DNA of 64,000 nucleotides from Psammoneis japonica (lineage: Eukaryota), in NCBI GenBank assembly GCA_008632985.1, contig QPGO01000009.1, positions 1 to 64,000 on the forward strand. Reading direction: 5' to 3'. The notes beneath the pieces were generated by a model, which saw only the letters and a list, made by a program, of their open reading frames with translations, was not told the origin of the DNA and ran no database searches. The translations under genes and the position numbers were made by a program. Below, in pieces: positions 7,936 through 51,800 of this stretch. Within the stretch, counting starts at the first letter, position 1. Every line of letters begins with the position of its first letter.

Positions 7936-8229
7936 GTTCTCGTCCCTTACGTCGTCAAGTAAGAAATTTCAGTAGATAATCCACCTCATCGTCAAACATG
8001 CGGCGGCGTCTAACTCGTCATCGCCAGAGTGCTGTGAGCTGTGACGGCAAAGCAAGCAAGCGAGCGAGCAAAACGAAAAATGACGAGCGTCTGTGCGTAT
8101 GCCAGTCGCCAGGCCTGGAAGGTGCTCTCGGCTCTCGCTCTACCGTGGACCGGTACCCTACAATACTCTCTCTACTGTGCTGTACTCTCTCTACTCTCTA
8201 CTCTCTAGAGAGAGAGCTAAGTGCGACAT

Positions 8230-17766: not shown

Positions 17767-18149
17767 CGAACTGACTCAGGAGATAGATGCAATTCATCAT
17801 TTGTGTTCATATGCATCTCATAAAGGATAAGGAAAACTAATCCCACGTACCGTACCGGCGGAGTAGCACTTTTGTTTGCGACTTGTCAGTTCGACAGTAA
17901 CGTCCAATGTTGCAACAAGATTTTGAAATAGTTGCCAGTATAGTGTCGACTTTTCTCAATAACAATTCGTTTGGTGTTCCACTTCGAGTTTGCAGATTTT
18001 GCAGATTGATACAAACACCGACAGTGAGGAGTCAGTCGATTCGATTAATCGCCGAAGATATAGAATATCACGATTATGAAAGATACCATGTGCTGCTCCG
18101 CCTCCCTCTACAGTTCATTTATTTAGTTAATACAAGCCAGCAGACATTG

Positions 18150-18455
18150 TGCTTTTGAATTTGCTCCTTAGCATGCCATTCTAGAAGTAGAAGAATCATT
18201 GCTTCATTGCCTTCACACGCTGCGCAGCAAAGGGCCGTTGCGCCACGCTCGTCAGTCCAACTGGCATTGGCGCCGTGCTGGAAGAGAATTCGTGCCCCCT
18301 CCACATTGTCCCACTCGATGGCAGCAATCAAAGGAGTCATGCCCTCTTCCCCAAGCACGTCAACCACCTCAGGATTGAATTTTAGAAGCTCATCCATGAT
18401 GCCTGCTTGGTCTTGGTGCAAAGCTGCCAAGTGGAGAGCTGTTGAATCCAGAAAG
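18150..18455 (-). pseudogene. ankyrin-repeat gene fragment at the edge of island 2
   Basis: Three ankyrin repeats: STALHLAA, GMTPLIAAIEWDNVEGARILFQHGAN, GATALCCAACEGNEAMILLLLE. Confidence 0.75.
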
Positions 18456-20660
18456 CAGAGAAGAGACAAGATCCAAGTGTTGGCCAATTGGCGAGCCTGC
18501 AAAATGCTGCTGCTGGCATTCAAGCATCCTGCACCCCTCATGACATTGGCAGCAACAAACACCTTTTTAAACAAACAGTCCAGTGTCCAACTTTTTGCCC
18601 CCCTCCTGCTTTCCTCAATTTCATTTCTTGTTTTGCCACAAGAGAGATGGAGCACATGGTTCTCACACAGAAAGCTGTTCTTTTGTCTGACTTTGCAAGA
18701 TCTGCAAGTGAGTGGATGGGTCACATCACCAAGTCTTGTTTAAGTTGTTGCAGACCCCAATTGAGTGAAGATGTTTCACCAACTTGAAAAAACCCTTTTG
18801 ATGGTCATCTCCCATTTCAGAAGGAACATTGTCTTTTGGAATGATGGCAGTTCATGGACCCAGCTTCCCACTGTCTTTCCATCCAACCAAGGAAAAACCA
18901 ATCAAATTGGCAGCTTCTTGAGTGCATTTTCAAAGTGTTGAACAAAGCTCTTCTTCCTGCTGGGTTGCTCCATTTTTCATGATCAGAGACCCTTCTCTGC
19001 ACTCTTCCTTTTCCATCTTGTGGAGAGAGCGCTCAAGAGAGTGGCGCTGACACTTGGTGCAAAGGGTGCTGCACTTTGGGCATGTCAGTTTGTTGCATTT
19101 TCCCAGACCTCTGCATGCTCCTGCAAAGCATTCAACACAAAACCCATGTTTTCTTGAACAACCAATTGTGAAATGCACTCACAGTGCAGCTGGCATTCAC
19201 ACATTGCACTTGGATCAAATGATCATGATGATGAAGAAGAGAGAGCCAGCGAACAAGCAAAGTGTTTGATGCAAGAACTGCAAAGCATTGCCCATCTTGA
19301 GTCATTGCAGTCATTGAATGACAGGCCTCTGAGATTCACACACCATGGTGTGGAGTGTTTTTTGGTGTTGGGTGTGTGCACAGAGGTGCAAAATTTTTAC
19401 AGAGTCAGCGTGCAATGGATGGGCACTGGGTTTTGCGCAACATGGTGCACAAAATCACAGCCAGATGAGTGTCACCCATGTGACACCAATGTTTTGTTTT
19501 GTTTTTGTTTGGACAAATGTTTGGCCTTCCACTTGCCTTGGAATTTTTGGAGCTTGCAAAAGTTTCTGCCACCTTGACTTTGAATTTGTCAAAACACCTT
19601 GAAGCTTCTCTTGTGCCTTCTTGAGCATGTCATCTGCCCTGCAACATCTGCGTCACACTGCTGCTCCAACTTGAGCCAGCTGAAGCTCCACACAGGTCTT
19701 TTGCAAGTTCTCCAACACTTTTTGCACCTGCTTCAATGACTTTTGGTGGATGATCTTGAAGCCACTGCACATTCATGCAGCTGAGCACAAAGCACCCACT
19801 CTGTCAGCAAGGTGATTTCTCAACATGCTTGGCGCGCAAAGAGGCGCAGCTTTGCCTCACTTTTTTGCTGCCTCCTCTGCTGCAGCCAAGCTTGTGGGCA
19901 ACACATTGTCAGTGCAAGTGCAGAGGCAATTTCAGAGCAAAGCAGCACAGCAAAGAGGGCAGCATGTGGCAAAAGAAGCTGCGTCACACAGTGCTTCTCA
20001 TCCTGCAAAGCCTTGCCATGATTTCACAATCTTGCTCATGTCAGTCATTGTGTCAGCATCATTGTGTTCACAAGACCCAGAAGCATGGGAACTTGATCTG
20101 CCACCACAAAATCCACAACTGACAACTCTCTCCACTCTTGTTTTCAAGAAGCTGCAAGATGTGCTCTCTCACACACTCAGCTGTCAGAGAGAGGCACTTT
20201 GTTGGGAGAGCTGATGAAGGCACTCATCACCAACTCGTTGTTGGTCCTGGCCCTGAACTTTTTCATTTTAAAACATGCAACAAGAGGTTGCTGTGTGAGG
20301 CAATGTGGTGGTGGAGTGTGTGGCAAGTTGTCGCACAAACGCGGTTCTCAGCCGCCAAGCAAGAGCCACGCTGGCACAGGACCATGAAGAGTGGTGTTTC
20401 TGACAGTCTGTGGGCAGTCTCTTTTCCTTGACTGGTGGGACAATGAAGCAATGATGAGTCTTGTCTGGGCACATGCTTGTGGCAGGATGATTCAATGAGG
20501 TTGGCCATTGCATTGCAGGGGTGGCAAGCTGTGTCCATTGAGCCGCAGGTTGTTTGGTGCTGCTCTTGCAGCAGCACCAGGACTCTTGCAGTGACAAGTT
20601 GACACAGAGAGAGCATGATGCAACAACGAGTGCTTGCTTGAAACAACTGCTCTAACTGCT
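18350..20660. other. CpG- and TpA-depleted hypermutated island 2
   Basis: Same TG/CA-saturated composition as island 1. Contains a RING-like Cys remnant (HGFCVECF...CPKC) on the minus strand at ~19070-19150. Confidence 0.85.
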
Positions 20661-24925: not shown

Positions 24926-26998
<2,073 letters not shown>

Positions 26999-27759
26999 AG
27001 GAGCGCTTTCTCGTCGGGCACGTTGGATCATTCTACAATATGTAGTATGTTAATCTTCCCCAGTCTGATAAAGTAAGCAAATACATTTCATTTGCAGGGG
27101 AACATGCCGGTAGTGGCTTTTTGGTCAATAGGCAGGACTCATCTGGAAAGGAGAATGACTGGAGGAAATGTAAAGGATCCAAGCTGCCCTGAAAATCTCG
27201 TCGGTTCCATCTCAGCTCCTTACAACTACCAAGGCGTGCCGCTCAAAAATAAGGCTTTCAAGTAAATATTGAGGCGCAAAGCAGAGATGTTATGAGAAAT
27301 GCTTTTGTTTTGAAATTCAACGCCTCTAGTAGAGTGTAGCTAAGTTAGCCTCTCTACGAGAGAGAGTTGGAGGCGGTGATACTAGATGGCTATCTCGTAA
27401 CACAATCCAGCTATTTGAATTGATGCCAGTGCCTCGCAAACTCTTTCGTCCGCTTTATATACCAGTTCATCAGATGACTGGTCGATCCAGCTACAGTCTG
27501 CGTCATGGGTGTACTTGAAAGAGAGCACTTGTTGCTGCCAACACCTTCTCTTGGAACTTGCATGCTCCCAGATATGCCAACATTGTAAGAGCAACAAGTG
27601 CCAAAAGAACCAATGATTTCCAATGAAGTCCACTTTCAGGAGAGTTCATAGCAGGGCTTGAGATTGATTGGTCGAGAATAACTCGGGGATGTCGCACATC
27701 GTTTGTCGCCAAAATGTCGACCGATCCGTACTCAACTGCAGGAACAATACGTCTTCCTT

Positions 27760-28960
27760 GTTTCATAATGCAGCTGTCAACTATCAACTATGCAAACTAT
27801 ACATAGGCTTTTCTTTTCAATACCCAAGACGATTCAAAGAGATGCTCTCTCCACCAGTAAGAGTGCGGGGGTCTGATGGTTGGTGTCACTCGTCACTCTA
27901 TGAACCTCAGCGGCCGGTGGCGAAAATCGAAACTGCAAAATGCGGGAGTTTGTCAAGTGCCTGATGTTTGTTTTGTGACACCGCGGGCGGAACGAACGAC
28001 TGGCGACTGGCGCACGACAGCACACGACTCGGGTGACCGGGTCGCGTTTCTTGCCGGTGTCGTGACCTGGACGTACGAATGGTTGGACAGAACCCCGATG
28101 AATTGAACACAGCTTGCCCTGGGACGTTCAAGAACGTGCCTTTATGCTGGCATGGCCACCCACCAATGATCATCTTTGGTTGAAGGTGTGCAGCAGCCAG
28201 TCTTGCACAGGGCGCAGCTTGCGCGAGGCTGAGAGGTGGTGGCTTGCAACAGCCAGGCGACAGACAGCAAGCTCCGGGCGCTCAGCACAGGCTCCTGAGG
28301 AGCCAGTCATCTCCTCACAAGAGAGCAGCTCACAAGCCCACAACTGCTGTGGCATGCATCCACCACACACACTTGCTTTGTCTCGGCTTTGTTGGGCTTT
28401 GCTGCAAAAAACAGCGCTTCTCACTCAGCGTGCTTTCTCCTCCACAATGTGGAGCACAAGGTTGGGTTGTTGCAAGCTCACTCCAACATGCATGCCCAGC
28501 CAAGTGCTGGCATGATGCAGCTGTCAACTGTGCAAACTTTTCACAGGCTTTTCTTTTCAGCACCCAAGACGATTCAAAGAGATGCTCTCTCCACCAGCAT
28601 CTGAAGGTTGGTGTCACAGCGGCCAGCGGCAAAACTCGAAACTGCAAAATGTGGGAGTTTTGGCAAATGCCAAGTGCGCAATGTTTTCTTTTGTGATGTG
28701 ATTGTCAGCGACACTGGACACCACCTGTGACGAGGGATGAACGAACATGGAATGAACGGCTGGCGACTGGTGCACTGCAGCACACAACTCAACTCACTCA
28801 AGTTGACTGGGTCATGTTTCTCGCTGATGTCACAACCTGGACAAGGGGTGCTGGGACAGAGCCCAGATGACTTGAACACAGCATGCCCTGGGGTGTTCAA
28901 GAACATGCCTTCATGCTGGCATGGCCACCATCCAAGGATCGTCTTTGGTTGACAAGGTGT
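27760..28960. repeat. tandem diverged duplication (~27760-28500 vs ~28510-29370) straddling the left edge of island 3
   Basis: Shared blocks such as CCCAAGACGATTCAAAGAGATGCTCTCTCCACCAG and GTCATCTCCTCACAAGAGAGCAGCTCACAAGCCCACAACT. Confidence 0.85.
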
Positions 28961-29699
28961 GTGCAACAGCCACCAGCCTTGCCCAGCCAGGGTGCAGCAG
29001 CTTGCCTTGCTTGGGGCTGACATGGTGGCTTGCAACAGACAGGCAATGGACAGGCAGCGTGGGGTGCTCAGTGCTCAGCAGGCCCCTGGGCAGCCAGTCG
29101 TCTCCTCACAAGAGAGCAGCTCACAAGCCCACAACTCCTGCATGGTGTGCATCCGCCACACACTTGCTCTGTCAGGATTTTGTTGGGCTGGTGCACTGCA
29201 AAAAACAGCACTTCTTGAAAGCTGTGATGTGCAGTCTTTTGTGCTGCTCTGCCAAGAGACAGCACTGGCAGCCTTGAAGTGCTTTCTCCTCAACAATGTG
29301 AAGCACAAGGCACAAGGTTGGGACATTGCAAGCTCAGTCCAACATGCACGCCCAGCCAAGTGCCAGCAGGCATGCCACATGATGGCAGCACCCCCCGAGT
29401 GATGAGAGGCAAAGTGGTTCAGCACACTGCTGCCTCAGCCCTCAGCCCATCATCCAAGTCTTCATGCAGCAGCAATCTTCAGCGGTCCAACTGCGCTTCA
29501 TGGCTTTTGCCATTGCAGCCTTGACAACTCCACCAAAAGAGTTTCCCTCAATGTCCACATGCCCAAGCTTGTTGTTTTTTGCACAGAGGCAGTGTTGTCA
29601 TCTTGCCAGCTGTTCCCCCCCAGCACTTTCATCCAGAGAGCACAGCTCTCTAACTCAGAATGATTGCCACAGCGGGCACACCATTTTCTGTGTTGTGGA

Positions 29700-32600
29700 A
29701 AGAAAAAGAGTTGATTTCATGGGTGATGAGAGTTTTTGTCAAAAATGGCAGCAACAGCTGCACAGACGTGGCCCGAAAGCAATGTGGTGTTGAGTCACCT
29801 GTGTGGCTCATTTTCCAAGGTGTTGGCCTGATGCCACCTCATGTCATGACCTTCAGCCCAGCTTGTTCAAGCCACACAAATGTCGTCTCAAGCTTTCTGA
29901 GATGATCTTGCCAGAAGTCACCTTTTGTGAGGCATGGTGTGTCATCAACATGAGTTCTGACAAACTCTCCAAGCCATGAGCTTCATCTGCAACATGTTTC
30001 TGTGCTTGACAAGAGTGCAACTTGTCAATGATTGAAATTTTTGCATGCATGCTGATTGCATCTGCAGATCTTCAATGCACACAATTGTCAATTTTGTTTC
30101 TTGGCACACAAACAAACAAATCTTTTTTTCTCGTTTCAAGCCACCTGTGTGGCTCATTCTGTCCACATTTTAAACACTTGTTGAGAACAGCTTCGCTTGT
30201 TTTTTTCCTTCCATTTGTCAGATCTCTGTTTTTGTTCAAGTCGTGTCAAGTCACCTGTGTGGCTCATTTTGTCCTCATTTTGAACTCTTGTTGAGAACAG
30301 CTTCATTTGTTTTTTTTCCTCTGTTTGTCAGATCTCTGCCTTTGCTTTAGTTGCCCATGTGGCTCATTTTGTCCTCATTTTAAACCTCTCAAGAACAGCT
30401 TCATTTGTTTCCTTTTCCTTCCATTTTGTCAGCTCTCTGCCTTTGCTTTGATCTGTCTCTGCTGCACCTGTCCTTTGTTCCTGCTGGACACTGCACCACT
30501 CATTCTCCAATCTAGTGACATCTGCCAACACAACAGTGGCACACCCCAGCCACAATCCACTTTGTTGTGTCCTGGTTGGATGTGTGACAATGACAACAAC
30601 AACAACAACAACAAGCATGCTCTCCAAAGACATTTTCAAAGGCATGTCCAGTGTTTTCTTTCTTCATTTTAGCCTGAACCCTGACAATGACTGTGGGAAG
30701 CACACCCCCAGTGCTGCAGGAAGAGAAGCACTGGGAACAGCAGGAAGAGCAGCTTGGATTTAAACTTGCCAACAAGGCATGGTCTTTGCATGTCATGAAG
30801 CAAGCAATGGCTCTGCTGCTTGGAAAGCCACTGCTTGATGACAGAAACTGGGAAGATTGTTTCGTCTTCTTCCCTGTCACCATCACCACAAATCAAGACA
30901 ATGGCCAAGAGTTCATCAGCCACACATCCTCTTTTCCAAGGGGTTCATTCTGGTGTTGAGTTTGATGACATGTCTTGGAGTCTCCAATTGGAGCAACAGG
31001 CTTGCCGGGTGGATGGTGCATGATGCACAGGCCAGCGCCACTTGAGAAGCTAAAACGGAGCATGTGGTGGTGTCCCCATGTCCCAGCAAACATTTGCCAA
31101 ATGCCAAGCCACATCATTGCAAGTGCACATTGGCTTGAGTTGCTGCCTGCATGACATGCACCCCAAATGCACTGAGTCTGCATTTGCTGAGTGGGCTGGC
31201 CCAATTGTGGTGTCTTTGCACTCTTGATTTGGGAAGCTGCAGGCCTTGTCTTGGGCAGCAGCAGCCCCGCTGCATGATTCCTCCACAAACAAGAAGATGC
31301 CCAGCTGCACAAGGTGTGGAAGCATGAGGCCAACAGATGTGAAAAAGGAGGTGTTGCAGTTGTCTTGGAATGGCATTGGAGGGCTTCAGTGGGTTGTCAG
31401 GGACATGCTGACAACCATGGTTGGGGAGCAAATGCCTGGTCTTGTGTCAACACAGCACCTTGTCTCTCTGACATGACTGGCTTGGGCCCAGCAAGCCAAC
31501 CTTCCAGGACAAGCACAGATGTGGCAAAGGAGGTGTGCAGTTGTCTTGGGATGGCATTGGAGGACTCTCGCGGGTTGCCAGGGACATGCTGACAACCATG
31601 GTTGGAGAGCAAATGCCTTGTCTTGCGTCAATGCAGCACCTTGTCTCTCTGACATGGTTGGCTTGAGGCTTTGACCCAGCTGGCCCACCTGCAGAGACAA
31701 GGGACACATCTGTGCAACAGCGCAAGTGCTCCATTGTCTTGAGTGGCATTGGATGACTCCATTGGATCCCAGAAAATGCAATGACAACAATGGCTGGGAA
31801 GCAAAGGCGTTGTCTTGTGTCAATGCAGCCCTTTGTCTTGCTGACATGACTGGGTTTGGCCCTGCCACCCCACCTGCAGAGACAAGAAAACCATCTGTGC
31901 AACAGCGCAAGTGCTTGGTCATGTTGGGATGGCTTTTGGTGACTCCAATGGATCCCAGAGGATCCAACAACAACAATGGTTGGGAAGAAAAGGTCTTGTC
32001 TTGTCTCTCTGACATGACTGGGTTTGGCCCAGCTGCCCCACCTGCAGAGACAAGAAAAGCATCTGTGCAACAGTGCAAGTGCTCAGTTGTCTTGGGATGG
32101 CATTGGATGACTCCATTGGGTTCCAGGGGATGCAATGACAACAATGGTTGGGAAGCAAAGGCCTTGTCTTGTGTCAATGCAGCCCCACATCTCTCTGACA
32201 TGACTGGGTTCTTCGGCCCAGCCACCCCACACACAGAGACAGGGAAACCATCTGTGTGACAGCGCAAGGGCTCAGTTGTCGTGAGATGGCTTTTGGTGAC
32301 TCTGTTTGATCCCAGAGGACACAACAACAACAATGGCTGGGAAGAAAAGGTCTTGTCTTGTGTCAATGCAGCACCTTGACTCTCTGACATGATTGTGGGT
32401 TTGGCCCAGCCAAGAACCGCTTTGCAAGAAAGCCAAGGGAACCATCTGTGCAACAGTGCAAGTGCTCAGTTGTCTTGGGATGGCTTTTGATGACTCTGTT
32501 GGATCTCAGAGAAGCCAACAACATCAATGGCTTGGAAGGAAAGGCCTTGTCTTGTGCCGGTGCAGCACCTTGTCCCTCTGACATGACTGGGTTTGGCCCA

Positions 32601-35110
32601 GCCAAGAACCAATTTGCAAGAAAGACAAGGGAACCATCTGTGTGACAGCACAGGCACTCAGTTGTCTTGAAATGGGCACAAGAGACTTCATTGGGTCTCT
32701 GAGGAGGCAAGAACAACAATGGTTGGAAGGAAAAGCCTGGTCTTGGGCCAGCGCAGCCCCTTTTTTGTCTGATGCGATTGGCTTGCTTTGGCCCAGCCAC
32801 CTCACCTGCAGAGACAAGGGAGCTTTCTGTGCCATGTGACAGTGCAAGTGCCCAGCTGTCTTTGAATGGCCTTGGGTGCCTCCACTGTGTCCCAGGGGAG
32901 CCAAAAACAACCAGGGCAGGGAGCAAGTGAATGGAAATTCATGGTGTTCTTCCCTGTCTCAAGCTGAGGGTGTTTTGCAGGAAGGGACTTCATTGCACTC
33001 CTTGAGAAAGTCAAGATCTTCTTTTTGAACTGCAGGGGAACCACAGCTGTCAGACACATTGTCAAAGGTGTTGACTTCTTCACTGGTGAAGGCTGCAGCA
33101 GCAGCAGCAGATCCTGGGTCACCGGCCTCCCCCAACAAAGAGCCTTGATGTCACCGAGGGCTTGTCCTGGAGCCTTGCCTGGGCTGCCTGGGAGGACCTT
33201 CAGCACCACAAGCACCACCTCCACCACAGCCACCGGTGGTGCTGGTGCAACTGGTGTTGTTGTGGCAAGCACCTTGTGAGCTCTGTTTCTTCTCCTTTTT
33301 CTTGGTGGCATGACCGGGCCAAATGGCAAAAAGATGTTGATTGAGCAACAATGGCTGGGAAGCAAAGACCTTGTCTTGTGTCAATGCAGCACCTTGTCTT
33401 TCTGATGTCATGACAGGGTTTGGCCCAGCCAAGAACAGATTTGCAAAAAGAAAGACAAGAGAGCTTTCTGCATTGTGTGACAGCACAAGCCATCACACAG
33501 ATGAGACAAGGGAGCTTTCTGCACCATGTGACAGTGCAAGTGCCCAGTTGCCTTTGGATGGCCTTGGGTGCCTCCATTGTGTCCCAGGGGAGCCAACAAC
33601 AACCAGGGCAGGGAGTCAGCAAATGTGGGTGGTGTTCCCTGTCTCTTGTTTGGATGGAAAATGGAAAACCAACAGAGAACAGAAGAGCAAGACCCGCCTT
33701 AAAGTTGCCCACTTTCTCTCTAAAAGGTTGGTCTCCAAAGTTGTCATTTCAATGGCATGAAGGGTCTGTTTCTGAGCTTTCTGGAGAGAGAGATGATTGT
33801 CTTGTTTTGGCAGCAGCAATTTTTAACACACCAAATGGCAAAAAGACGTTGATTGAGGTCCCCGAGCTGGGAGTGTGCAGCACGAGTGAAACAATTTCAA
33901 TCTTAACAAGAACACATTGATGTGATGAAATCAAACTTTTTGAACGCATGTTTGGCATCAAGGACTGAATGATTCACTGAGGCAGTTTCAAATCGTTCAA
34001 ATCATTGTGTTAAAACAAAATCATTGATTTTCAAAACAAAATTGTTGCTCAAAAAGAGATGCCAACAGGAATCAACTGATGGTCAGGCTTGCATTTTGGC
34101 CAAAAACATGAATTGTTGCTCCCTCACAAGACACAAAAAATGCAAACTCAAGTTGCACCCGATGTCTGACAATGAGAGCAGTGGGGACAGGCAGCAGCAT
34201 TGTGGACAGGACAACACAAGCAAAATGCAGGCAAGTGGCAAATGCATGGAGGTGGGTGCACAATGAAAACAACTGACACCCACACACATTTTTGCACACA
34301 GACATCCAGACATGTGACCTGACCTGCAGCCAATGGAAGATGGGCAATGGGGAAGGGCACAAAGGTGAGCAGAAGCAGTGCATGAGATGAGAGATTGCAA
34401 GAAAAACAAGACATGCACAAAACCCAATTGTTGGCACAAAATTTTCTCTTGTTGCAGGCGACACTTTGGCCTGTCAAACAGAAGGAATGCAAGACAGATC
34501 ATTGCAGGACGATGTTGTTGCCTGGTGCAGATGATCACAGAGCGAGAGTGGTTGCAAGTGAGGACACAAGGACCAAAAAATCACACCCATTGTGTGGGAA
34601 TTGTGAAGGACAACAGGAACTGGTGGAATGCAGGAAAAAACAAGAACAGGAAAAAGGGAGCATTGTTTGGTGTGCAGCACAGAAATGATGAAATGGAACA
34701 TTTGCAAAACAGACAACAAGCAGCACACAGCCAGTGCACAATCAGGTTTGCAAGACAATTGAGCACCATCATTGTCAAAAACAAACAATGTCAGAAAGTT
34801 GTTGTGAACACACAATTGTCAAGATAGAAACAATTGCAAGTGACAAGTTTCATCAACTGTCATTTCCTGCTTGGAAGGTCAGTTTAATTGTGGATGGATG
34901 CAAAAGCAATGTCAAAACAAGTGGACATGAAAAATTGACAAGAATGTGTGCATGATGCAACTGATTTGTGTCAACTGTTAAACCCCACTTGGAAGGTTCA
35001 AACAACAATTAAATTCCTTTTGTCAACAATTGTCAAGGACTTGTTGAGGACACACAATTCTGAAGAAGAGAGTGTGAGTTCTGATTGAGAGCCACAATGT
35101 TTTCCATGCA
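29700..35110. repeat. left arm of a ~5-kb diverged inverted repeat (partner 41710-46860; 29960-30250 also matches 47940-48230)
   Basis: CATTTCCTGCTTGGAAGGTCAGTTTAATTGTGG (34861) is the reverse complement of ~41940-41972. (CAA)n-GCATGCTC at ~30595 matches GAGCATGC-(TTG)n at ~46523. ORF translations are shared on opposite strands. Confidence 0.9.
31380..33620. repeat. tandem array of diverged ~175-195-bp units
   Basis: TTGTCTTGTGTCAATGCAGC...CTCTGACATGACTGGGTTTGGCCC recurs at ~31440, 31620, 31810, 32165, 32350, 32550 and 33370. Confidence 0.85.
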
Positions 35111-35699
35111 CATGCTTGGCTGTCATGCTGCTGCTTGCATGTGAAGGGCTGGGGGTCCATTTTGTCAACAGCAGTGCTGTTTTGCCAATGGTCAATGTTT
35201 TGCCACATGCAATTGTGTTGTGACCCTGTTTGGACAGTTGTGCAGAATCTTTCAGGGTGCTCTGCAAGATTTTTGAGTTGATGCACACAAATGTCAAAAG
35301 CCAAGAAAAGTTCAATGACACGCAAATGCATCAGAGACCAACATGAATTTGTCTTCCTTGTGAACCATGTTGTCCTGCCTGCTTGCACCTCACACATGCA
35401 TTGTCAACACACGGCACAAGTTGCAGCACATGTGAAAGACCAAATCAAGCTCCAGCTTGCCACAGAATGCAAGCCACATTGTTGTTGTCAACCATTGAAG
35501 AAGCATTGAACATTTTGTTGCAACTGTTTGTTTGTGAAGACAATGAGATGCAGCCATTTGGCAAAGTGTCCAATTGATGATGCACAGCCACTCTGTCTCC
35601 AACTCCAAAGTCATTGATGGCAGGGCCCGGGCACCTGCAGCAGAATCAGCTCTGGTGGCAGTTGCTTGCACAATCAGCACAAGTGCCCTGTCCTTGTTG

Positions 35700-36540
35700 G
35701 AGCATGGTTCCCTGATCTCAAATTGCAGTTGGCTTCATTCTTGCATCAAATCTTCCAGCATGGCATGGGTCCGCTCTCAAGTGTGTGACGCCAAAGGCCA
35801 ACATTTGTGCAAAGCACAGTTGACACTTTTCTCTTGTGGAAATGTTGGAGCCAAGGACAGGCTGTTTTCCAGCTCTGCCCACAAAGCAAGAGCTTGTAAA
35901 GGACACAGCGCTGCAAGTGCTCCTTGCAAGAATCTTTTGAATGCCAGTCGGGTTTCTGCAAGAGAGTGAGAGATGTTGTTGGCTCTCTCATTCTTGCGGT
36001 TGCTCTGCTGCAGGAAATTCCAATTTTGTGATCTTCTGGATCTTTGTCATTCCAGAAGATCTTTGCCCTGTTGGCAGAAGATGTTGCACCATCCTCATCA
36101 GGTGTTGAGCTCTTCACCACCTCTGCACAGATCTGGGTTCTTGAGCTGTCCCCAACATTGGCACCCATCTGAGCAAGGACCAAACAGCCAGAGATGGCAG
36201 AACAAATGACTTCAGGCTCCAAATGTGGCAGGCACAGACAAGGAACACCCTTGGACACCCACCTCTGTCATCTTTTTGCAGCACCTCTCTTGCTGTGACT
36301 CTGCTGAGTTTTTTTTTTCTTGGCCAAGACAAGTCTCTCTTTGCGCTGTTTGCTTCAGCTGCCATGTCAGTTGCTCCCTCCCCCCCCTCCCTCCTGAAGC
36401 CACTCAGTCTGTCAGCCGAAGAAGCCTTTGGCAAGGCTGCATTTGGCATTGTTGACAATTGCTGCAACAGTGCAGTGCTTGGGACAAAGCTCAAGCTCAT
36501 GCTTTGATCTGAGAGGGAGATGAAGGTTCGCACAGTGAAG
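35700..36540. repeat. diverged direct repeat of 50620-51500 carrying a remnant minus-strand reading frame
   Basis: ORFs 35746-36258 and 50653-51243 share AQMGANVGDSSRTQICAEVVKSS.PDEDGATSSANRAKIFWNDKDPEDHKIGISCSR. Confidence 0.9.
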
Positions 36541-36711
36541 CTCTGGAACACGGGTGCGCCAACCGACTCCGAATGTAAGCCTTCAGACATTTAGACGAGT
36601 GTTGACACTCTTTTCGATCGCCTGATGACGTGACATGATATGAGATTCATCGGTCCCCCCATGTCAACGGAATCCAAAATTTTGAATTTGAACAAACAGA
36701 CAGTGGAAACC

Positions 36712-39085
36712 TCAATGGGCACATCGCAACAAATGTGCAACAAATGCGACAAAGCCGAGATTTGCAACCCGACATGGTTTCCTGTGCACGTGTCATGGAA
36801 TGACAGTCGAAAAGCACCGACCCCGATGCCTCCTTAACGGCGCTGGACCTTTTGGAGCAAGCAACCGAAATGTACAATCGCGCAACGAAGGAAGAGCACA
36901 TGCCGAATCTAAGAACGTTCACAATGGCTTTTCTGGTGTTGTCCAAGTGCCCACAACGTGTTGGTAACGTGGTCAAGGGGCACGAGAATTGTTGCAAGAC
37001 CAGACGACATGTGCACAGAGACTCGTCAGCAAGGTCCAAGCTACCCGCATCACCTAAACAATTTGAGGGAAGTTCTTGTCCACAACATGCACGTGTGTTT
37101 TGCAATGAAAAGGAGATAGCCGGAATACTACAACGCATCCGTCTTGCTTTAAGACTGACGACCACCCATTACGGTAGAAGTGCGCATGTGCGAGCTAGAA
37201 GTAGTACTAAGGTAATGTATAGAATTACGAGCGAACGTTTTAGGAACTCTGTTTTCTATTCCTTTTAATTTGAGACGTGTTTTTATTGTCTCTCTAGAGA
37301 GGTATGATTTGTATTTTTTCATGGGAGCCTTGTAAAATTATTGCTCCCAACGAATGCTCTTTTCTCTTCCGTCAATGTTTCAACAACAAGCTTGACTTCC
37401 GAAGCGACACGACTTACATGATAGCAATGCGAGCCTGAAATAGAGTGTGGTCAATGAATTCTCTTTCGTCAATGTTGCCTCTCTGTTTCAACGTGACGTC
37501 TGAAACGGCCTCGGCTTACAGTACTGCGAGCCTGAATTCTTGAGCTGTAAAAGCGAACCGAGATGGCGCAAACGGCAGAGAAAGCGCGTTTCTCTGATAG
37601 ATTGCAAAGTTCTTGAACCGACTGAGTCATCAAAATTACGAGTACTAGCCTTCAAATGATCTGACATGGTCACCGGATGTCGTAACAAACACCTCTTCGG
37701 AAGGACTTGTTGGTGGAACCGGTGGGGGCATCTGGTGAGTTTTAGCTACTGCTTCGAGACTACCACACAGGTAGCCTTACTAGGCAACCCCACGACTGAC
37801 GTAATGCCCCCCATTGGTGAAAACGTTGGCGAGTGTTGCGCTACTGCTTCGTGACTATCGGTAAAGGCTGCTTGCCCGGTCCGCCGATGCCCTATTAGGT
37901 AGCCCCGTCTAACGTCCACCTTGCCTTGCGGCAAAATTCGTTCTTCTCCCAACCAATGGATATGCGTGCGAGTTGTTGTGTCACTGCTTCGTGACTATGA
38001 GTAATTGACGAGAGGCTGAAGCCTTCACATCTACCCAAGCCCTAATAGGCGACCCCGCAATCTAACATTCCGTACCTGTGAATTCGTGTGCGAGTTCGCG
38101 TTACTGCTTCGAGTCTGGATAATTGACAAGAGGCCGTCTCGGGTTGCGAGAAAGAGTGCCACGTCTATCCAAGTCCTAATGAGTAACCCCGCTTCCACGT
38201 TCACGCCGCCCCATGGCAGCAAAAGCCACAACAAGTCAAGTACGAGATATTGCTACTGCTTCGGGTAGAGCAATTGACAAGAGGCCGTCTCTTATTCCAA
38301 CGTTGTTGGGAGACTGAGTGCCACGTCTGCTCAATCCTAATGGGTAGCCTCGCATTGCTGCTGTACTTTTCAAAACGTCCTTCTTGGTGAATCCAATCCC
38401 AAACCACAATCAGTACATCGCCTCGCCTTGAATATCCCAGACCGCCGTGCCGCAACCTAGACACGAGCACCTCAACGTATCCGCTTCTTGCCCACAACCA
38501 CGGTGAATGATAATTCTGTCTCTGTGTACGTACAAGAAGGCAAGAGCGAGTTGAGTGGATGAAATACAAAAGAAAAAGGAACAACACGATACACGATCAC
38601 GACAAGAACACACGTACCTTACTCTGCAACGACAAAAGCCGGCAGCAAGCAGAACGCCCATGGCCACTGCAAAGAGCGCCATGGTCAAAAGAGAAACACA
38701 ATCAACTCCTCCATTTTACTGCCGTGTTGTTTGAGTTGATTGTCAGAATTATGAGCAAATCGAGAGCGAGCGGAAGTCAGCATCGGATTGTTCGTGTACC
38801 AGAAGCACGTAAAATCCACGGAGCCTCAGTCCTCGGTCTTCCACGACTCGTGTGCTCTCGGTGCCTGGCAGGTTTCGACAACTTATCCTCTTGTGGGATC
38901 AGATATTTTCAAAAATGTCGGAACCGGTACTGGCATGCCGAATCTTCCAAAAACGAGCGGCAAATCGATCGCGAGCGTCATGGTGAAGTTTCTCGTTTCT
39001 TTGATGATGGATGCTTGATGCTTGTGTGTTGTGTGGTCGCGCGTTGGTTAGTCATCGGATCTTTGCGGACGCACATCAGACGTAC
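36712..39085. repeat. near-identical ~2.4-kb direct repeat, copy 1 (copy 2 at ~52880-55248)
   Basis: Identical or near-identical ORF translations offset by ~16161 bp (37488-37688 vs 53649-53849; 37666-37854 vs 53827-54015). Confidence 0.95.
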
Positions 39086-41709
39086 CGGTACAATCGATTT
39101 TTAGCACATTTTATTTCAAAACTTGTGTCATGTTGTGTGTGTCATTTTCCTCTTGACATCTTCCAGAAGAATCGCGGAACAAGGTCAACAAAAAACAAAC
39201 GTTGTTGCGTCCATCTCTGCTGTGCTAAGCTGCTCTGTTGGGAAAGAGAGTGATTTTCCCGTGCAAACAGACCTCCATGTGGAAGGAGGTGTCAGCTGCT
39301 GTGGTGTTCGGGGGTGCAGCACGATTTGTCTTTGTCTCCAACCCCTTCTGCTTCAAGACTGCACTCGTGTGAAGTGCCATTGCACTTGAAGCTCTTGCCT
39401 GTCTTTTGTGTTGTTAAAGATCTTTTTTCAACAAGATCCAGTGATGAAAAAAACTGACAAAGATTGCGGCAAACAAGAGGCGGCAGAGCTGCTGTGGCAT
39501 CTGATGCACATGGAATGCCAGCTGTGCTTGCAGCTGTTTTCTGCTTGAAATGTCTTCCCAAAGAGCACACAAACAGCCCATCTAGAGATGTCTCAGGACA
39601 GCCTCATGCACCAACCTTGCAAGTCAAGCAACTTCCTTGTCAAAACTCGTCTTGACTCAAAGAAGAGGCAGCTGTTTGGGGCTGCAATGCTGAAAAGACG
39701 ATTGCACCAACATTCAACCAAAACACACACTGCAACAATCTTTTCTCACCAAAGCAATTGGCAAATGATGTGACCACATTTGTCACAAAAACATTGTCCA
39801 CTGACTCTTCCTTGTCCAAGGCCAAGAGACCATTCCCACAGTGCAACAAAAACTTGCCACACAAGGCTCTTCTCTCAACCCGCTCGCCATCTGTGGCATC
39901 AGTGATCAGGTTTTCAAAAAGTGCACAACAAAAATCACATGGCTCTGGCCCAAATGACAAGCTGACAGAGAGACAATCTTGCTGCAAAGATGCAACAGGA
40001 TTCCTGCAAACTGGTGGCAAAAGCAACTTCCCCCAATCCTCCATCCCTCGGAAGATCCCACAACTCATCTGGAGTTAAGACCACCCTCAAACATCTGGAG
40101 GTTTTGGCAGATGTCTGCCATGCAACTTTTTCTTTTGAACAAACCCAGCAAAAATGCAAAGAATGGTGCTTCTGTGCGATCTTGTGCTCAGCAACATGAC
40201 AAGCAGACCTGCAGAATTTCGTGGTTCAGTTGACGCTGCTCACATTGCAATCAACCAACAAGCCAGCTGATCCCTGAGACAATGTTTTCACAACATGAGG
40301 CTTCATTCCCATTGACAGCCAACAATGAGTTGCAAACTTGAACTACTTTGGCAAGGAACTGAGAGACCAGATTGTTTTTGCTGCCCCAGAAAGGGCTTTC
40401 TCAGAAAAACAACAAGCTCACAGTTTTGAGTTCTGCCTCATGCAATGTGCAATGAATGACAAAGCACCAGACTGGCGCCAAAGTGAAGGATGTTTGTTGT
40501 GCAAGACCATGTTGCCATGTGCCTGCAAAAGCATTTTTTCAACACAAGGGTCCCAAAATGCAACATCAAAGGTGCTCTGAAACTGAGCCAGAAGCTTGGT
40601 TTCCTCCAGCACAATGGCTTTTGTGGACAAGAACTCTCAACTCTGTCATTTGGTGTGACAGAGTTTTTTTCCCATTTGAGTGGCTCTGAAGCCATGCCAG
40701 CTGATTGGAGATGATTTGCTTGCCAGAAGGTTCAAAGCTTCCAAAAGCCATCTGCACCACCTCAACAATTGACAGAAAGCTTCAGGTCATGACAGATGTG
40801 TGCACCATTTTGCATTGCAAAGGAGACAGCCAGAACACTGCCACACATCCCTCTTGCTTTGTGGCTGATGACCACCTCCAAGCCCTTAAAGCGCACATGT
40901 GCCAGCTGGAAGCAGGGGTGGAACAAACAAGTGCAAGTGGGTGTGTGGCAAAAACTGCCAGTGCTCCAGAGAAACTGAGTTTGGAGCTTGGACCAGGTCA
41001 GCAAATGCACCTTGAAGGCAGCTTTGATTGGGAACAACAAAGAGTCAACACCCCCATTTCTTGTTGTTGTTTGCTGATGTTCTCATGGGAGAGTGCCATT
41101 GTGTGCTGAGAAAGTGGTGCTCGTCACCGCCATTTCTCTCAAATGCAAGTTCAGCCCACTGCACCTTCAAAAACAGCCACCATGTCCATCTCGCTGAGGT
41201 TTGTCAGGTTCTTGGCACACCCAAGGTCTCAACTCACCTGCTGATGGATGGCATGATGAGAAGCAAGACAGCTGTCCACACCACCTTGCACAGCATTGCC
41301 AGAGAAGTGGTGCAGTTGAGACAGATGCAAGGAAACTGCCTTGTGCTCAGAAGTTGTGTTGCACCCAGCATCTCTTCTGTCATGTTCCATCAAAGTTCCA
41401 GAAGAGTGCCAGCTTTGCACATTTTGTCATGGTCTTTGAGGGCATGACATGGAGTGGTTCTCAAGGCAAGACAGTCCTTTCAGAAGGCAGAACTGTCAAC
41501 AGCATTGTGTTGCATCAATTTGCTGGGTGCCACGGCTGCAGCACAACAACAGAGTTGAAGCTGAAACAACCTGCCCTTCTTGCTGCTTGGTGCAAAAGAC
41601 TCAAAACACAGAGACCATTGTGCCAGCAAAGTGCTTGTGTCTTTTTTGGCAAAGAGTTGCTGACATCTCAAAAGGAGCTTTGGTGCTTCTTGGAACAGAA
41701 AACTTGAGT

Positions 41710-44700
41710 GGCACAACTGGAAAATGTTGTGGCTCTTCTTGTTCAAAATTCACACTCTCATGCTCAGAGTTGTGTGTTCTTAACAAGTCCTTGACAATCA
41801 TTGACAAAGAGAGTTCGCTGATTGTTGGAGCCTTCCAAGCGGCACTCAACAGTCAATGCAAATCAGTTTTTGGTGCATCACACACACATTCTTGATAATT
41901 TTTGTGTCTGCTTGTTTCAACATTGTTCTCATGTCTGTCCACAATTAAACTGACCTTCCAAGCAGGAAATGACAGTTGATGAAACTTGTCACTTGCATTT
42001 GTTTCTGTCTTGCAGTGACAGCCATGTGTTTGCAACAACTTTCTGACATTGTTCATTTCTGACAACAACAATGTTCAATTGTCTTGTAAACCTGATTGTG
42101 CATCAGCTGTGTGCTGCTCATCATCTGATTGGCAAATGTTCCATTTCGTCATTTCTGCACTGCACACCAAACAATGCTCCCTTTTTCCCATTCTTGTTTT
42201 CTCCTGCATTCCACCAATTCCTGTTGTCCTTTGCAGTCCCTGCACAACAGGTGTGATGTTTTGGTCCTTGTGCCCTCCCTTGCAACCACTCTTGCTCTCT
42301 CCACAATCATCTGCACCAGGCAGCTGCATCATCCTGCAATGATCTGTCTTGCATTCCTTCTGTTTGGCAGGCCAAAGTGTTGCCTGCAACAAGAGAAAAC
42401 TTTGTGCCAATGACCAAGTTTTGTGCATGTCTTGTGTTTCTTGTGATCTTGTCTCATGTGCTGCTTCTGCTCACCTTCGTGCCCTTCCCTGTTGCCTGTC
42501 TTCCATTTCAGCTCAGGTCAAGTGTCCAGATGTCTGTGTGCAAAGATGTGCACAAGTGTCAGTCATTTGCATTGTGTGCCCAATCACCATGCATTTGCCA
42601 CTTGTTTTTCTCACTTTGTGTCTTGTGTCCTGCATTTTGTTCCATCCCATCCACAACGCCATTGCCTTTTGCCACTGCTCTCATTGTCAGACATTGGATG
42701 CGACTTGAGTTTGCATTTTTTGTGTCTTGTGAGAGAGCAACAATTCATGTTTTTGGCTAAAATGCAAGCCTGACTGTCAGTTGATTCCCATTGGCATCTC
42801 TTTTTCAGCAACAACTTTGTTTTAAAAATCAATGATTGCATCACAATGCAGTGGTTTGAACGATTTGAAGCAACCTCAATGAGTCACTCAGTTGTTGATG
42901 TCACACATGCATTTGACACAAGTTTGACTTTGTCGTGTCAATGTGTTTTTGTCAAGATTGAAATTTTCACACTCATGCTGCACACTCCCAGCTCCAGAAC
43001 TTCAATCAACACCTTTTTGCCATTTGGTGTGTTCAAAGATTGCCGCTGCCAACAAGACAATCACCTCTCTCGAGAAAGCTCAGAAACAGACCCTTCATGC
43101 CAGTGAAATGACAACTTTGGAGACCAACCTTGTGAAGAAAGTGGGAGACTTGAAGGTGGGTCATGCTCTTCCACTCTCTCTTGGATTTCTGTCCAAACAA
43201 GAGTGAGATGAAGTCCCTTCCTGCAAGACACCCTTGGCTTGAAACAGGGAACACCATGAATTTCCATTCACTGACTCCCTGCCCTGGTTGTTGTTGGCTC
43301 CCCTGGGACACAATGGAGGCACCCAAGGCCATCCAAAGACAACTGGGCACTTGCACTGTCACAAAGAGCAGAAAGCTCCCTTGTCTCTGCAGGTGGGGTG
43401 GCTGGGCTAAAGCAAGAAGCCAGTCACGTCAGAAAGACAAGTGGCTGCATTGGCCCAAGACCGGGCTTTTCCTTCCCAACCATTGTTGTTCTTGCCTCCT
43501 CCTCAGGGACCCAATGAACTCTTTTGTGCCCATCCAAAGACAACTGAGCACTTGCACTGTCACACAGACAGCTTCTTTGTCTTTCTTGCAAATTTCTTCT
43601 TGGCTGGGCCAAACCCTGTCATGATGTCAGAGAGACAAGGTGCTGCATTGACACAAGACAAGGCCTTTGCTTCCAGACCATTGTTGCTCAAAATCAACAT
43701 CTTTTTGCCATTTGGCCTTTTTGCCATTTGGTGTGTTTGTTGACCATGCCGCCAAGAAAAAATGAGAAGCAGAGCCAACAAGGTGCTGGCCGCAATGACG
43801 CCAGTCGCGCCAGCCCCGCTGGTGGCCATGTTGGAGGTGGTGCTCATGGTGTTCAAGCACAAGGTTGAGGTCCTCCCAGGCAGTCCAGGCAAAGCTCCAA
43901 GACAAGCTCTTGGCAACATCAAGGCTCTTTGTCCAGAGCTGCTCCACTGGCCGGTGACCCAGGATCTGCCGCTGCTGCAGTCTCCACCAATGAAGAAGCT
44001 GATGCCTTTGAAAATGTGTCTGACGGCTCTTCCCCAGCATTTCAACAAGAAGATCTCTGCTTTCTCAAGGAGCATCCACCAATCACCATGCCTCCAACAG
44101 CATCAACCCAAAAGAAATGTCTGGCAAAGAATGCAAAGTGTGGCTGTTGTTTTGTTGGCAGATGCACGGCCTTTGGAAAAATCAGCTGCAGCAAAAGTGC
44201 AAAGCCCATGGTGCAAAAATTGCCACTGCCAACAAGACAATTGCCTCTCTCCAGAAAGCTCAGAAACAGACCCTTTGTGCCAGCAAAATGACAACTTTGG
44301 AGACCAACCTTGCAATGAAAGTGGGTGACTTGAAGGTTGGTTGTGCTCTTCTGTTCTCTCTTGGTTTTCTGTCCAAACAAGAGACAGGGAACACCATGAA
44401 TTTCTGTTCACTGGCTCCAATTGCCACTGCCAACAAGACAATTGCCTCTCTCTCCAGAAAGCTCAGAAACAGACCCTTCATGCAAATGACAACTTTGGAG
44501 ACCAACCTTCAATGAAAGTGGGTGACTTGAAGGTTGGTTGTGCTCTTCTGTTCTCTCTCTTGGCTTTCTGTCCAAACAAGAGGCAGGGAACACCATGAAT
44601 TTCCATTCACTGACTCCCTGCCCTGGTTGTTGCTGGCTCCCCTGGGACACAATGGAGAAACCCAAGGCCACCCAATGACAACTGGGCACTTGCACTGTCA

Positions 44701-46860
44701 CACAGAGCAGAAAGCTCCCTTGTCTCTGCAGGTGAGGTGGCTGGGCCAAAGCAAGGAGCCAATCACATCAGACAGAAAAGGGGCTGCATTGGCCCAAGAC
44801 CAGGCTTTTCCTTCCCAACCATTGTTGTTCTTGCCTCCTCAGGGACCAGATGAAGTGTCAAGACAACTGAGTGCTTGCGCTGTCACACAGATGGTTCCCT
44901 TGTCTCAGCTGCAAATTGGTTCTTGGCTGGGCCAAACCCAGTCATGTCACTGAGACAAGGTGCTGCATTGACACAAGACAAGGCCTGCACTTCCCAACCA
45001 TTGTTGTTGTTGTGTCCTCCTGAATCCAGCAGAGTTGTCAAAAGCCATCCCAAGACAACTGAGCACACACAGATGGTTTTCTTGTCTCTGCAGGTGGGGT
45101 GGCAGGGCCAAACCCAACCATGTCAGAGAGATGCAGGGCTGCATTGACACAAGACAAGGCCTTTGCTTCCCAGCCATTGTTGTCATTGGCTCATCTGGGA
45201 TCCAACAGAGTCACCAAAAGCCATCCCAAGACAACTGAGCACTTGCACTGTTGCACAGATGCTTTTCTTGTCTCTGCAGGTGGGGCAGCTGGGCCAAACC
45301 CAGTCATGTCAGAGAGACAAGACAAGGCCTTTTCTTCCCAACCATCATTGTGGTTGGTTCCTCTGGGATCCATTGGAGTCACCAAAAGCCATCCCAACAT
45401 GACCAAGCACTTGCACTGTTGCACAGATGGTTTTCTTGTCTCTGCAGGTGGGGTGGCAGGGCCAAACCCAGTCATGTCAGCAAGACAAAGGGCTGCATTG
45501 ACACAAGACAAGGCCTTTGCTTCCCAACCATTGTTGTCATTGCATCCTCTGGGATCCAATGGAGGCATCCAATGCCACCCAAGACAATGGAGCACTTGCA
45601 CTGTTGCACATGTGTGTCCCTTGTCTCTGCAGGTGGGCTGGCTGGGGGCCAAAGCCAGTCATGTCAGAGAGACAAGGTGCTGCATTGATGCAAGACAAGG
45701 CATTTGCTCCCCAACCATGGTTGTCAGCATGTCCCTGGCAAGCCACTGGAGTCTTCCAATGCTGTCCCAAGACAACTGCACACCTCCTTTGCCACATCTG
45801 CGGGCATCACACTTTCACACCTTGTGCAGCTGGGCACATTCTTGGTTCTTGTTTGTGGAGGAATCACACAAGGGGCTGCTGCAGCCAAGACAAGGCTTGC
45901 AGCTTCCCAAATGAAGAGTGCAAAGACACCACAGTTGGGCCAGCTCACTCAACAAATGCAGACTGGGCGCATTTGGGGTGCATGTCATGCTGTGGGCAGA
46001 AACTCAAATCAACATGCATTTGTGGTGATGATGATGATCTGGCTTGGCATTTGGCGAATGTTTGCTTGGACACAGGGACACCACCACATGCTTCATTTTA
46101 GCTGCTCAAGTGGCGCTGGCCTGCGCATCATGCACCATCCACCTGGCAAGCCTGTTGCTCCAATTGGAGATGCCAAGACATGTCATCAAACTCAACACCA
46201 GAATGAGCCCCTTCAAACTGATGATGTTTGGCTGAGGATGAACTCTGGCCATTGTCCTCATTTGTGGCAATGGTGGCAGGGAAGAAGATGAAACAATCTT
46301 CCCAGTCTCTGTCATTTGGCAGTGGCTTTTCAAGCAGCAGGGCCATTCCTCACTTTGTGAGATGCAAAGACCATCACTTGGCAAGTTTAAATCCAAGCTG
46401 CTCTTCCTGCTGTTCCCAGTGCTTCTCTTCCTGTGGCACTGGGGTGTGCCTCCCAAAGTCATCATCAGGGTTCAGGCCAAAATGGAGAAAGAAGAACACT
46501 GGAGGTGCCTTTGAAAATGTGAGAGCATGCTTGTTGTTGTTGTTGTTGTTGTTGTTGTCACACATCCAACCAGGATGTCAGATCAGAGGATGAGTTGTGC
46601 AGTGTCCAGCAGGAAAAAAGAACCACAGGCACAGCAGAGACAGAGCAAAGCAAAGGCAAAGAGCTGACAAAATGGAAGGAAAAGGAAACAAACAAAGCAG
46701 AGGTTGAGAATGAGGACAAAATGAGCCACACAGTTGACCAAAACAAAGGCAGAGATCCACACAGGTGACTCAACACAATGCTTTTGGGCCACGTCTGCAC
46801 AGCCATTGCTGTGATTTTTGACAAAAATGCTCACAGCCCACAAAATCAATTCTTTGACCT
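41710..46860. repeat. right arm of the inverted repeat, including inverted copies of the ~180-bp array (43250-45790) and a local ~200-bp triplication (~43050, ~44230, ~44430)
   Basis: Reverse-complement matches to 29700-35110. CAACAAGACAAT..CCTCTCT..AGAAAGCTCAGAAACAGACCC occurs three times. Confidence 0.88.
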
Positions 46861-51509: not shown

Positions 51510-51800
51510 GATGCTGATGGGCTCAGCACCAAGGAGTTTTGCAAACTTCTTGGCAACCAAGCTTGCTCTTGGCAGCAGAGTCACCTGGTGGAGACCAACA
51601 ACCTTGGCCATGACATGCTTTTCTGGATCAAGAAAGATGACGGCAGATCTGTGACATCTGAGCTTGTTCTTGCTCTCCAATTTGAGCAGGTTTTTGATGT
51701 CTTGGCACAGCACCATGGACGCATGGGTGGTCATCCCAAATTGGGTTGCATGTTCAATGACATCAAGAAAAAGTTTTACAATGTCACAGAGATGCTGGGT
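51510..51800 (+). mobile_element. integrase zinc-binding (H2C2-type) domain remnant, Ginger/KRBA2/SCAND3-like
   Basis: LALQFEQVFDVLAQHHGRMGGHPKLGCMFNDIKKKFYNVTEM resembles the E.FD.L...H...GH.G...M...IK.KY.NIT pattern that precedes rve integrases. No catalytic core was recognised downstream. Confidence 0.55.

Follow-up and report, generated by a model that had tools for sequence, protein, structure and literature searches.

Background

The repeat-induced point mutation (RIP) of ascomycete fungi is triggered by homology, hits both copies of a repeat and converts CpA to TpA, thereby creating stop codons and lowering the content of guanine and cytosine (GC). Context-specific transitions on selfish or foreign sequence are also produced by deaminase defences, including APOBEC3 and AID acting on C, ADAR acting on A in double-stranded RNA, and ADAT2/3; the substrates of ADAR and ADAT have a U 5' of the edited A. 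Here we describe a stretch of 64,000 nucleotides from the diatom Psammoneis japonica (positions 1 to 64,000, forward strand, of contig QPGO01000009.1, GenBank assembly GCA_008632985.1; hereafter, the window), in which TA and CG dinucleotides are nearly absent from four islands, and in which two pairs of paralogous sequences that cross island edges retain these dinucleotides mainly in the parts lying outside.

The closest known case is the TpA hypermutation of the chlorarachniophyte Bigelowiella natans (Mettrop et al., bioRxiv 10.64898/2026.01.13.699255). In the parts of that preprint covered here, two integrated viral regions are reported to mutate >1000-fold faster than the rest of the genome in mutation-accumulation lines, with 230 of 231 mutations being A->G or T->C, all of them at TpA. 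The same parts describe 124 genomic clusters that are poor in TpA and rich in CpA plus TpG, and the authors, who also cite RIP and discuss deaminase defences, propose an ADAT2-like adenine deaminase. On this account, the first description of a region-confined mutator specific to TpA dates from 2026 and concerns a single rhizarian alga. In the diatom Phaeodactylum tricornutum, DNMT5-dependent CG methylation lies on regions that are rich in transposable elements and marked by H3K9me/H3K27me3 (PMC9998398); the terms "CpG depletion" and "deamination" each occur 0 times in that article. In the literature searched, no report of TA/CG co-depletion or of TpA hypermutation in diatoms was found, and a match to the term "hypermutated" (PMC9258296) was irrelevant.

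Results

A per-kilobase dinucleotide profile of the window revealed four islands (I1 to I4; Table 1), together 41% of its length, in which TA and CG are both near-absent and TG and CA are approximately doubled. The left edge of I3 runs through a head-to-tail tandem duplication (pair 1, copies A and B). The original prediction had placed a paralog pair across this edge, with TA->TG/CA and CG->TG/CA changes in the inner copy. The pair exists, although its extents had been drawn too short, and all seven of the differences quoted for it were recovered, at copy A positions 27767, 27790, 27804, 27821, 27858, 27922 and 27943. The predicted bias is borne out by a full alignment of the copies (100 mismatches in 712 aligned columns) tabulated by dinucleotide: the changes run one way, and symmetric substitutions without TA/CG bias were not seen. 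Opposite the outer part of copy A (A-out, 27764-28143), the eight aligned TA read CA (3), TG (2), TT (2) or AA (1) in copy B, and the 24 aligned CG read TG (8), CA (6), CG (6) or otherwise (4); 5 of the 8 TA and 14 of the 18 lost CG are now TG or CA. Dinucleotides found only in the outer copy outnumber those found only in the inner copy by 8:0 for TA (sign test, p = 0.008), 18:3 for CG (p = 0.0015) and 26:3 jointly (p = 1.5e-5). Of the 52 mismatches, 31 fall on sites that touch TA or CG, although such sites number 74 among the 341 aligned (odds ratio 8.4, p = 6e-11). In the stretch that is inside the island in both copies, private CG are symmetric (8:5, p = 0.58). Copy B keeps 14 CG, five opposite the inner part of copy A and nine opposite A-out, of which six are common with copy A and three are private to copy B.

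Short-read contigs from one public sample, which may be the sample that the window was assembled from, matched 26500-28339 and 28568-30013 with 0-1 differences at a depth of 60-77, the single-copy level of the flanking gene; the depth over copy B is likewise single-copy (72-77). Pair 1 is thus neither an assembly artefact nor a high-copy element. No third copy of the repeat was found beyond 29375, where an alignment in a two-letter alphabet scored 720 against a shuffle mean of 729. The spared part of copy A would be the upstream (promoter) region of an 87-aa open reading frame (ORF), if that ORF is a real gene.

Self-comparison of the window uncovered a second pair (pair 2), a direct repeat whose copies are 16 kb apart and of which one copy crosses the left edge of I4. 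In the 2.2-kb core, which lies outside the islands in both copies, 93 of 94 TA and all 139 of 139 CG are kept, and only 9 of 1764 sites away from TA/CG are mismatched (99.5% identity). The summed depth of the core in contigs of run X1 is 6-10x single-copy. The core element is non-coding (no ORF >196 aa and no Pfam or Rfam match), and high-depth contigs show many differences from the window.

The 380-bp tail of pair 2 is inside I4 in the first copy. Here, the 17 TA of the outside copy have become TG (8), CA (7) or TT (1), with a single TA kept, and this one sits in TTAA in the inside copy. Changes were also found at 10 of 15 CG. Identity drops abruptly at 39087, with indels, and 12% of tail sites away from TA/CG are mismatched; no homology was found past 39467/55633. 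The tail is probably older than the core, and because of its indels and background mismatch the 0.5% divergence of the core was rejected as a clock for the tail and no rate was drawn. Among the tail differences away from TA/CG, an eye count gave ~12 A:T->G:C changes (outside to inside copy) and ~5 in the opposite direction. This could reflect weaker secondary targets of the mutator, or just a greater age of the tail. Summed over both pairs, outer-only to inner-only counts are 24:3 for TA (p = 4.9e-5) and 28:7 for CG (p = 5e-4), and 20 of the 24 TA changes across edges lead to TG or CA.

It had also been proposed that position within a domain, and not merely being repeated, decides which copy is hit. 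Both pairs support this, the first through its 26:3 asymmetry and the second through the contrast of tail and core. Tandem copies are equal in age and in repetition, yet only the part inside the domain has lost TA and CG, so position is what decides. Being repeated is not sufficient, since the core of pair 2 is near-identical between copies and present at high depth, yet unmutated. These alignments support targeting that follows position in a domain, with an edge sharp to ~100-300 bp, rather than sequence homology.

The composition of the islands was determined in their cores (3200-4400, 18400-20600, 28400-36400 and 39600-52200). TA falls from 43.0/kb outside to 2.3/kb and CG from 57.4/kb to 8.5/kb, while TG rises by 40.0/kb and CA by 46.9/kb, such that the TG+CA excess (86.9/kb) approximately equals the TA+CG deficit (89.6/kb). 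A wholesale conversion of TA/CG to TG/CA is expected to give such a balance. Observed/expected (O/E) ratios are 0.03 for TA and 0.15 for CG in the islands, as compared with 0.64 and 1.0 outside. The base composition of islands and flanks is the same (A.258, C.243/.241, G.236/.238, T.263), since the GC gained by TA loss offsets the GC lost with CG. With TA gone, the stop codons TAA and TAG are impossible and TGA alone is left, and long ORFs are therefore expected in islands by chance; of the 194 ORFs in the window that reach 100 aa, 119 overlap an island.

Along the tail of pair 2, the outcome switches between TG and CA from one site to the next, and the TG/CA skew across islands stays between -0.17 and +0.10. 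Both strands are therefore hit, without strand-coordinated runs. Combined with the effect of chromosomal position, this lack of coordination favours a process that acts on DNA in place over one that acts on an RNA or complementary DNA intermediate. The outcome also depends on the flanking bases. Of 55 TA surviving in island cores, 26 are in TTAA, and survival relative to outside is 0.74 for TTAA, 0.15 for CTAA/TTAG, 0.05 for both GTAA/TTAC and CTAG, and 0-0.02 for all other contexts (Fisher p = 1.6e-21); TTAA is nearly immune to TA erasure. On the assumption that islands started with the tetranucleotide make-up of the surrounding DNA, which underlies all flank fits here, an additive per-strand model with the rate set by one flanking base fits the 16 contexts with four parameters (chi2 = 11.7). 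Its rate-times-time values by the base 3' of the edited A are 3.40 for T, 2.91 for C, 1.65 for G and 0.17 for A. An alternative reading assigns these rates to the base that lies two nucleotides 5' of the edited A, and eight diagnostic strand-resolved events split 5:3 between the readings. Loss of CG by the base 5' of the C is 1.41 for T, 1.20 for A, 1.01 for C and 0.35 for G, with GCGC as the best survivor.

Six alignments of island against island sequence contain 94 adjacent CA<->TG double differences, compared with 8 for the AC<->GT control. This excess implies that the hits on each copy were independent and followed the duplication, with TA (or CG) in the ancestor becoming TG in one copy and CA in the other. 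A TG or CA ancestor would need two coordinated changes each time, which favours a TA or CG ancestor. Much of the mutation thus postdates the duplications. One homologous pair between I3 and I4 (Table 1) has 86% nucleotide identity but 97.4% identity in a purine/pyrimidine alphabet.

Maximum-likelihood change points resolve the TA edges of the islands to ~50-300 bp, with flanking DNA of normal composition. At the left edge of I3, the TA edge falls at 27900 (support 27859-27948) and the CG edge at 28765 (28280-28843), and 28143 marks the last TA; a further CG change point falls at 36490-36550. For six of the eight island edges, the CG change point is displaced inward from that of TA by 128-865 bp, and for I1 right and I2 right the two coincide. 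We read the offset edges as one graded boundary, at which a fast TA process that saturates at low exposure would act together with a slower CG process; the offset argues against a single enzyme with a single footprint. Likely gene starts adjoin several edges (the uL4 ORF at 4942, a 550-aa ORF at 20977 and the 87-aa ORF at 27503-27766 on the minus strand). Between 4800 and 5000, exactly at the right edge of I1 and before the uL4 ORF, there are 25 CG in 200 bp at 63% GC. This spike looks like an unmethylated promoter patch serving as a boundary. At the left edge of I2, the repeat-coding part of an ankyrin ORF (~18169-18436) lies in a zone that is TA-free yet CG-rich; the ORF may be a host gene, or a pseudogene, under erosion from the island side.

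The interior of I3 (29657-35068) has a summed contig depth of 6-40x single-copy and carries 110-bp and 168-189-bp tandem units. Tandem arrays inside the islands lie at 30131-30449, 31333-32669 and 44218-45775, with units of 100-110 bp and 168-199 bp. I3 and I4 also have inverted blocks in common (for example 30331-32531 with 46757-44620, and 33503-35106 with 43387-41718). Overall, several long inverted blocks of 70-88% identity connect 29984-35106 and 41718-48210, and the right ends of I3 and I4 are direct repeats, which makes for a complex arrangement. Contigs of run X2 gave no cover over 28304-36421 and very high depth over 37324-38676; the run is guessed to be DNA, and it is uninformative on expression or silence.

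An Rfam search of the whole window returned 0 matches. A 359-aa island ORF (31389-32465, minus strand), which lies over one of the tandem arrays, had one HMMER match among 1.84 billion representatives (E = 2.3e-16, in 13 stretches), which was rejected as homology, being tandem repeat on tandem repeat with a BLASTP E of 0.64. For a 619-aa ORF (6109-7968, minus strand) no homologs were found. All named matches of the uL4 ORF among the 120 matches listed are diatoms (50-58% identity). For a fragment of a DDX5-type helicase, most named matches are diatoms at 64-75% identity (P. tricornutum 69%, Thalassiosira pseudonana 64%), with a best unnamed match of 86%, Triparma at 67% and oomycetes at 53-54%; in a protein atlas this ORF falls into broad eukaryotic clusters that are taxonomically uninformative. 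By their protein matches, the two markers point to a diatom or a very close relative, and not to Bigelowiella.

Table 1. Coordinates of islands, paralogous copies and neighbouring ORFs in the window
Feature	Position	Strand	Remarks
Copy A of pair 1 (head-to-tail tandem duplication)	27764-28510		Basis: alignment, dinucleotide table, change points, contigs
Copy A, outer zone	27764-~27900		Fully outside
Copy A, transition zone	27900-28143		TA sparse, CG dense
Copy A, inner zone	28144-28510		TA-free
Copy B of pair 1	28511-29375		Wholly inside I3; no TA
Copy 1 of pair 2	36712-39464		Core 36851-39085 outside islands, unmutated; tail 39086-39464 inside left edge of I4, TA/CG lost
Copy 2 of pair 2	52880-55633		Wholly outside islands; core 53010-55248; tail 55249-55633 retains TA/CG missing from copy 1 tail
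Island I1, TA-/CG-depleted	2884-4759		Right edge abuts 5' side of organellar uL4 ORF
Island I2, TA-/CG-depleted	18188-20653		Ankyrin-repeat ORF crosses left edge
Island I3, TA-/CG-depleted domain	28143-36835		Interior is a high-copy repeat with tandem units
Island I4, TA-/CG-depleted domain	39226-52527		Inverted blocks in common with I3
Island/island homologous pair	35697-36560 (I3) and 50616-51514 (I4)		10 CA<->TG double differences
87-aa ATG-to-stop ORF, candidate gene	27503-27766	-	Copy A's first three bases form its start codon (ORF list)
Organellar uL4 ORF	4942-6033	+	5' side at right edge of I1
Ankyrin-repeat ORF	18122-18739	-	Pfam E = 2e-21; crosses left edge of I2

Discussion

We consider it likely that a domain-confined pair of transition processes acts in place on silent repeat DNA, with a TA arm of the B. 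natans type and a CG arm of methylcytosine deamination. On this view, two transition processes, both restricted to one and the same domain, would act in place on blocks of silent, mostly repeated DNA. The first would convert TpA to TpG or CpA (A:T->G:C on either strand), a signature measured directly in B. natans. The second would convert CpG to TpG or CpA, most simply by deamination of 5-methylcytosine in methylated repeats. The tandem duplication would straddle the left edge of one such domain (I3): copy B and the right part of copy A, being inside, would have been cleared of TA and, at a slower pace, of CG, and the leftmost ~140-380 bp of copy A, lying outside and beside a possible gene start, would have retained both. 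We infer the chromatin or methylation nature of the domain as well as the chemistry of the TA arm, for which adenine deamination is our favoured guess. Cytosine methylation of the islands is suggested by analogy with P. tricornutum. The direction of change, from TA/CG to TG/CA, we infer from composition, from the CA<->TG double differences and from the mutation-accumulation data of another organism.

Several observations weigh against this reading. There are two copies in each comparison and no outgroup copy, so the direction is not seen directly; a search for one in metagenome contigs by exact 35-base matching gave 0 matches. Transversions account for 3 of the 8 TA changes in pair 1 (TT, TT, AA) and for 4 of the 24 TA changes across edges in both pairs. 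Mismatch at sites away from TA/CG is high wherever a copy sits in an island: in pair 1 it reaches 7.9% (21 of 267, opposite A-out) and 10.2%, and in the pair 2 tail 12%, as compared with 0.5% in the core, where both copies are outside. The process is therefore not strictly limited to TA/CG, or else these stretches are older than the core, and a comparison of rates with the core is unsafe. The core of pair 2 could itself be spared merely through youth. Among the 119 island ORFs of at least 100 aa, Pfam searches found no transposon or viral domain, the matches being the ankyrin ORF at the edge of I2 and one sub-threshold match. Finally, CpG is lost in the same domains here, whereas the word CpG occurs 0 times in the B. 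natans preprint.

A single pathway could do both, either as one ADAT2-type deaminase acting on A in TpA and on 5-methylcytosine or C in CpG, or as one repair or modification system aimed at both self-complementary pyrimidine-purine steps. We regard this as unlikely. It would explain why the two depletions occupy the same four domains with balanced products, and the preprint, in the parts covered, refers to ADAT2 enzymes for which editing of A as well as C in DNA has been reported. Yet the edges are offset by 128-865 bp at 6/8 boundaries and the extents of loss differ (survival of 0.05 for TA and 0.15 for CG). The flank rules differ as well, TTAA being refractory for TA and GCGC most refractory for CG, and in B. 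natans the TA arm occurs without a reported CG arm in those parts of the preprint.

The TA arm might instead be a change of thymine, whereby TET/JBP-type oxidation of T in TpA yields 5-hydroxymethyluracil or 5-formyluracil, which mispairs with G and leads to T->C. In dinoflagellates, 5-hydroxymethyluracil is enriched at TpA. Because TA->CA on one strand is TA->TG on the other, the sequence cannot separate A->G from T->C, and the flank rule is equally readable as an effect of the 5' neighbour of T. Nothing in the window favours a thymine change, however, and the authors of the B. natans preprint prefer adenine deamination, in the covered parts equally without a test. We judge the thymine route improbable.

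If the edges were junctions of old and young DNA, old repeats would have been mutated anywhere, their unmutated neighbours would have been inserted later, and position would be irrelevant. In favour of this, the unmutated 2.2-kb core between I3 and I4 is a high-copy element with a near-identical second copy, and identity drops abruptly at its end, with indels. For pair 1 the junction view is contradicted, since the halves of one tandem duplication are of the same age and still differ 26:3. The CA<->TG double differences moreover place the hits after duplication, and the edges of TA and CG loss are gradual and displaced from each other, unlike breakpoints that coincide. Junctions as the general cause are very unlikely. 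Still less credible is that the outside copy is the altered one, with TG/CA ancestral and TA made from CA/TG by a RIP-like process. With two copies and no outgroup the direction is formally open, and fungal RIP does create TpA, but the outside DNA is ordinary by its O/E ratios and it is the islands that are extreme, CG cannot arise by RIP, both copies of a repeat should have been hit although the core pair is untouched, and the 94 double differences require passage through TA or CG. It is equally hard to credit that the islands are foreign or selected DNA with an inherent avoidance of TA and CG, of the kind shown by some viruses towards CpG and UpA, or that they are an artefact of assembly or polishing. 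Two pairs contain the same sequence in both states, on opposite sides of an edge, which already contradicts it; the mass balance points to conversion, and short-read contigs reproduce the sequence.

Two concurrent, domain-confined processes thus remain our preferred explanation. The paralog pairs amount to a natural experiment on targeting, and the boundary that they locate, sharp to ~100-300 bp, is new relative to the covered parts of the B. natans preprint. A footprint of this mutator in a diatom-like genome, complete across 41% of a 64-kb window, would turn it into a phenomenon broad among eukaryotes, and one present in a major group of ocean primary producers; so far it is known, from those parts, in a single alga. 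The co-located, offset CpG decay would tie the mutator to the methylated, silent compartment, with methylation taken by analogy, and gives a testable order of events. The immunity of TTAA, together with the additive per-strand flank rule, is a fingerprint for judging candidate enzymes. Since their GC content is normal, such islands escape GC-based repeat scans, and they produce spurious long ORFs, which matters for the annotation of diatom genomes.

More tentatively, and as a proposal that we hold to be possible rather than probable, diatoms and chlorarachniophytes may share a chromatin-guided DNA editing defence that is the mirror image of RIP. It would read the silent domain instead of homology and turn every accessible TpA into TpG or CpA, following a strand-wise flank rule that spares TTAA, and it would be coupled to a cytosine-methylation domain in which CpG decays a few hundred bases further in. 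If true, TpA editing would be an ancient, widespread arm of genome defence in the supergroup of stramenopiles, alveolates and rhizarians (SAR), invisible to GC-based scans since its two arms cancel in base composition.

Compared with B. natans, as described in the covered parts of the preprint, the window has in common the dinucleotide, both products and the hitting of both strands; the confinement to blocks, kilobases to >100 kb long, with normal DNA alongside; and the long-term depletion of TpA with enrichment of CpA plus TpG in clusters mostly without annotation. The host differs, its marker proteins here matching diatoms (Stramenopila) and not a chlorarachniophyte. Depletion is deeper here, with a TA O/E of 0.03 against a Rho of 0.45 in the giant-virus region and a cut-off of 0.43 for the clusters. 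The B. natans targets are integrated viral DNA. In the islands here, the interior of I3 is a high-copy repeat, and no viral or transposon domain was found among the 119 ORFs of at least 100 aa. De novo rates were measured in B. natans, whereas here the footprint is read from assembled sequence. The immunity of TTAA, the edge offsets and the positional evidence from paralogs are seen here and have no counterpart in those parts of the preprint.

As in methylation-driven CpG decay, CpG gives way to TpG/CpA in repeat-rich blocks beside unaffected genes, and the flank effect (AT-flanked CG lost fastest, GCGC slowest) is compatible with the deamination of methylated C; CpG decay alone, however, leaves the loss of TA unexplained. 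The deaminase defences differ in that the outcomes here are strand-uncoordinated and dependent on chromosomal position. With RIP the islands share dinucleotide-specific transitions that degrade repeated DNA and leave compositional blocks. The trigger differs, since the outer part of copy A and the near-identical 2.2-kb pair are spared here, and the effect is the opposite: TpA is destroyed rather than created, the codons TAA and TAG are removed, and base composition is unchanged.

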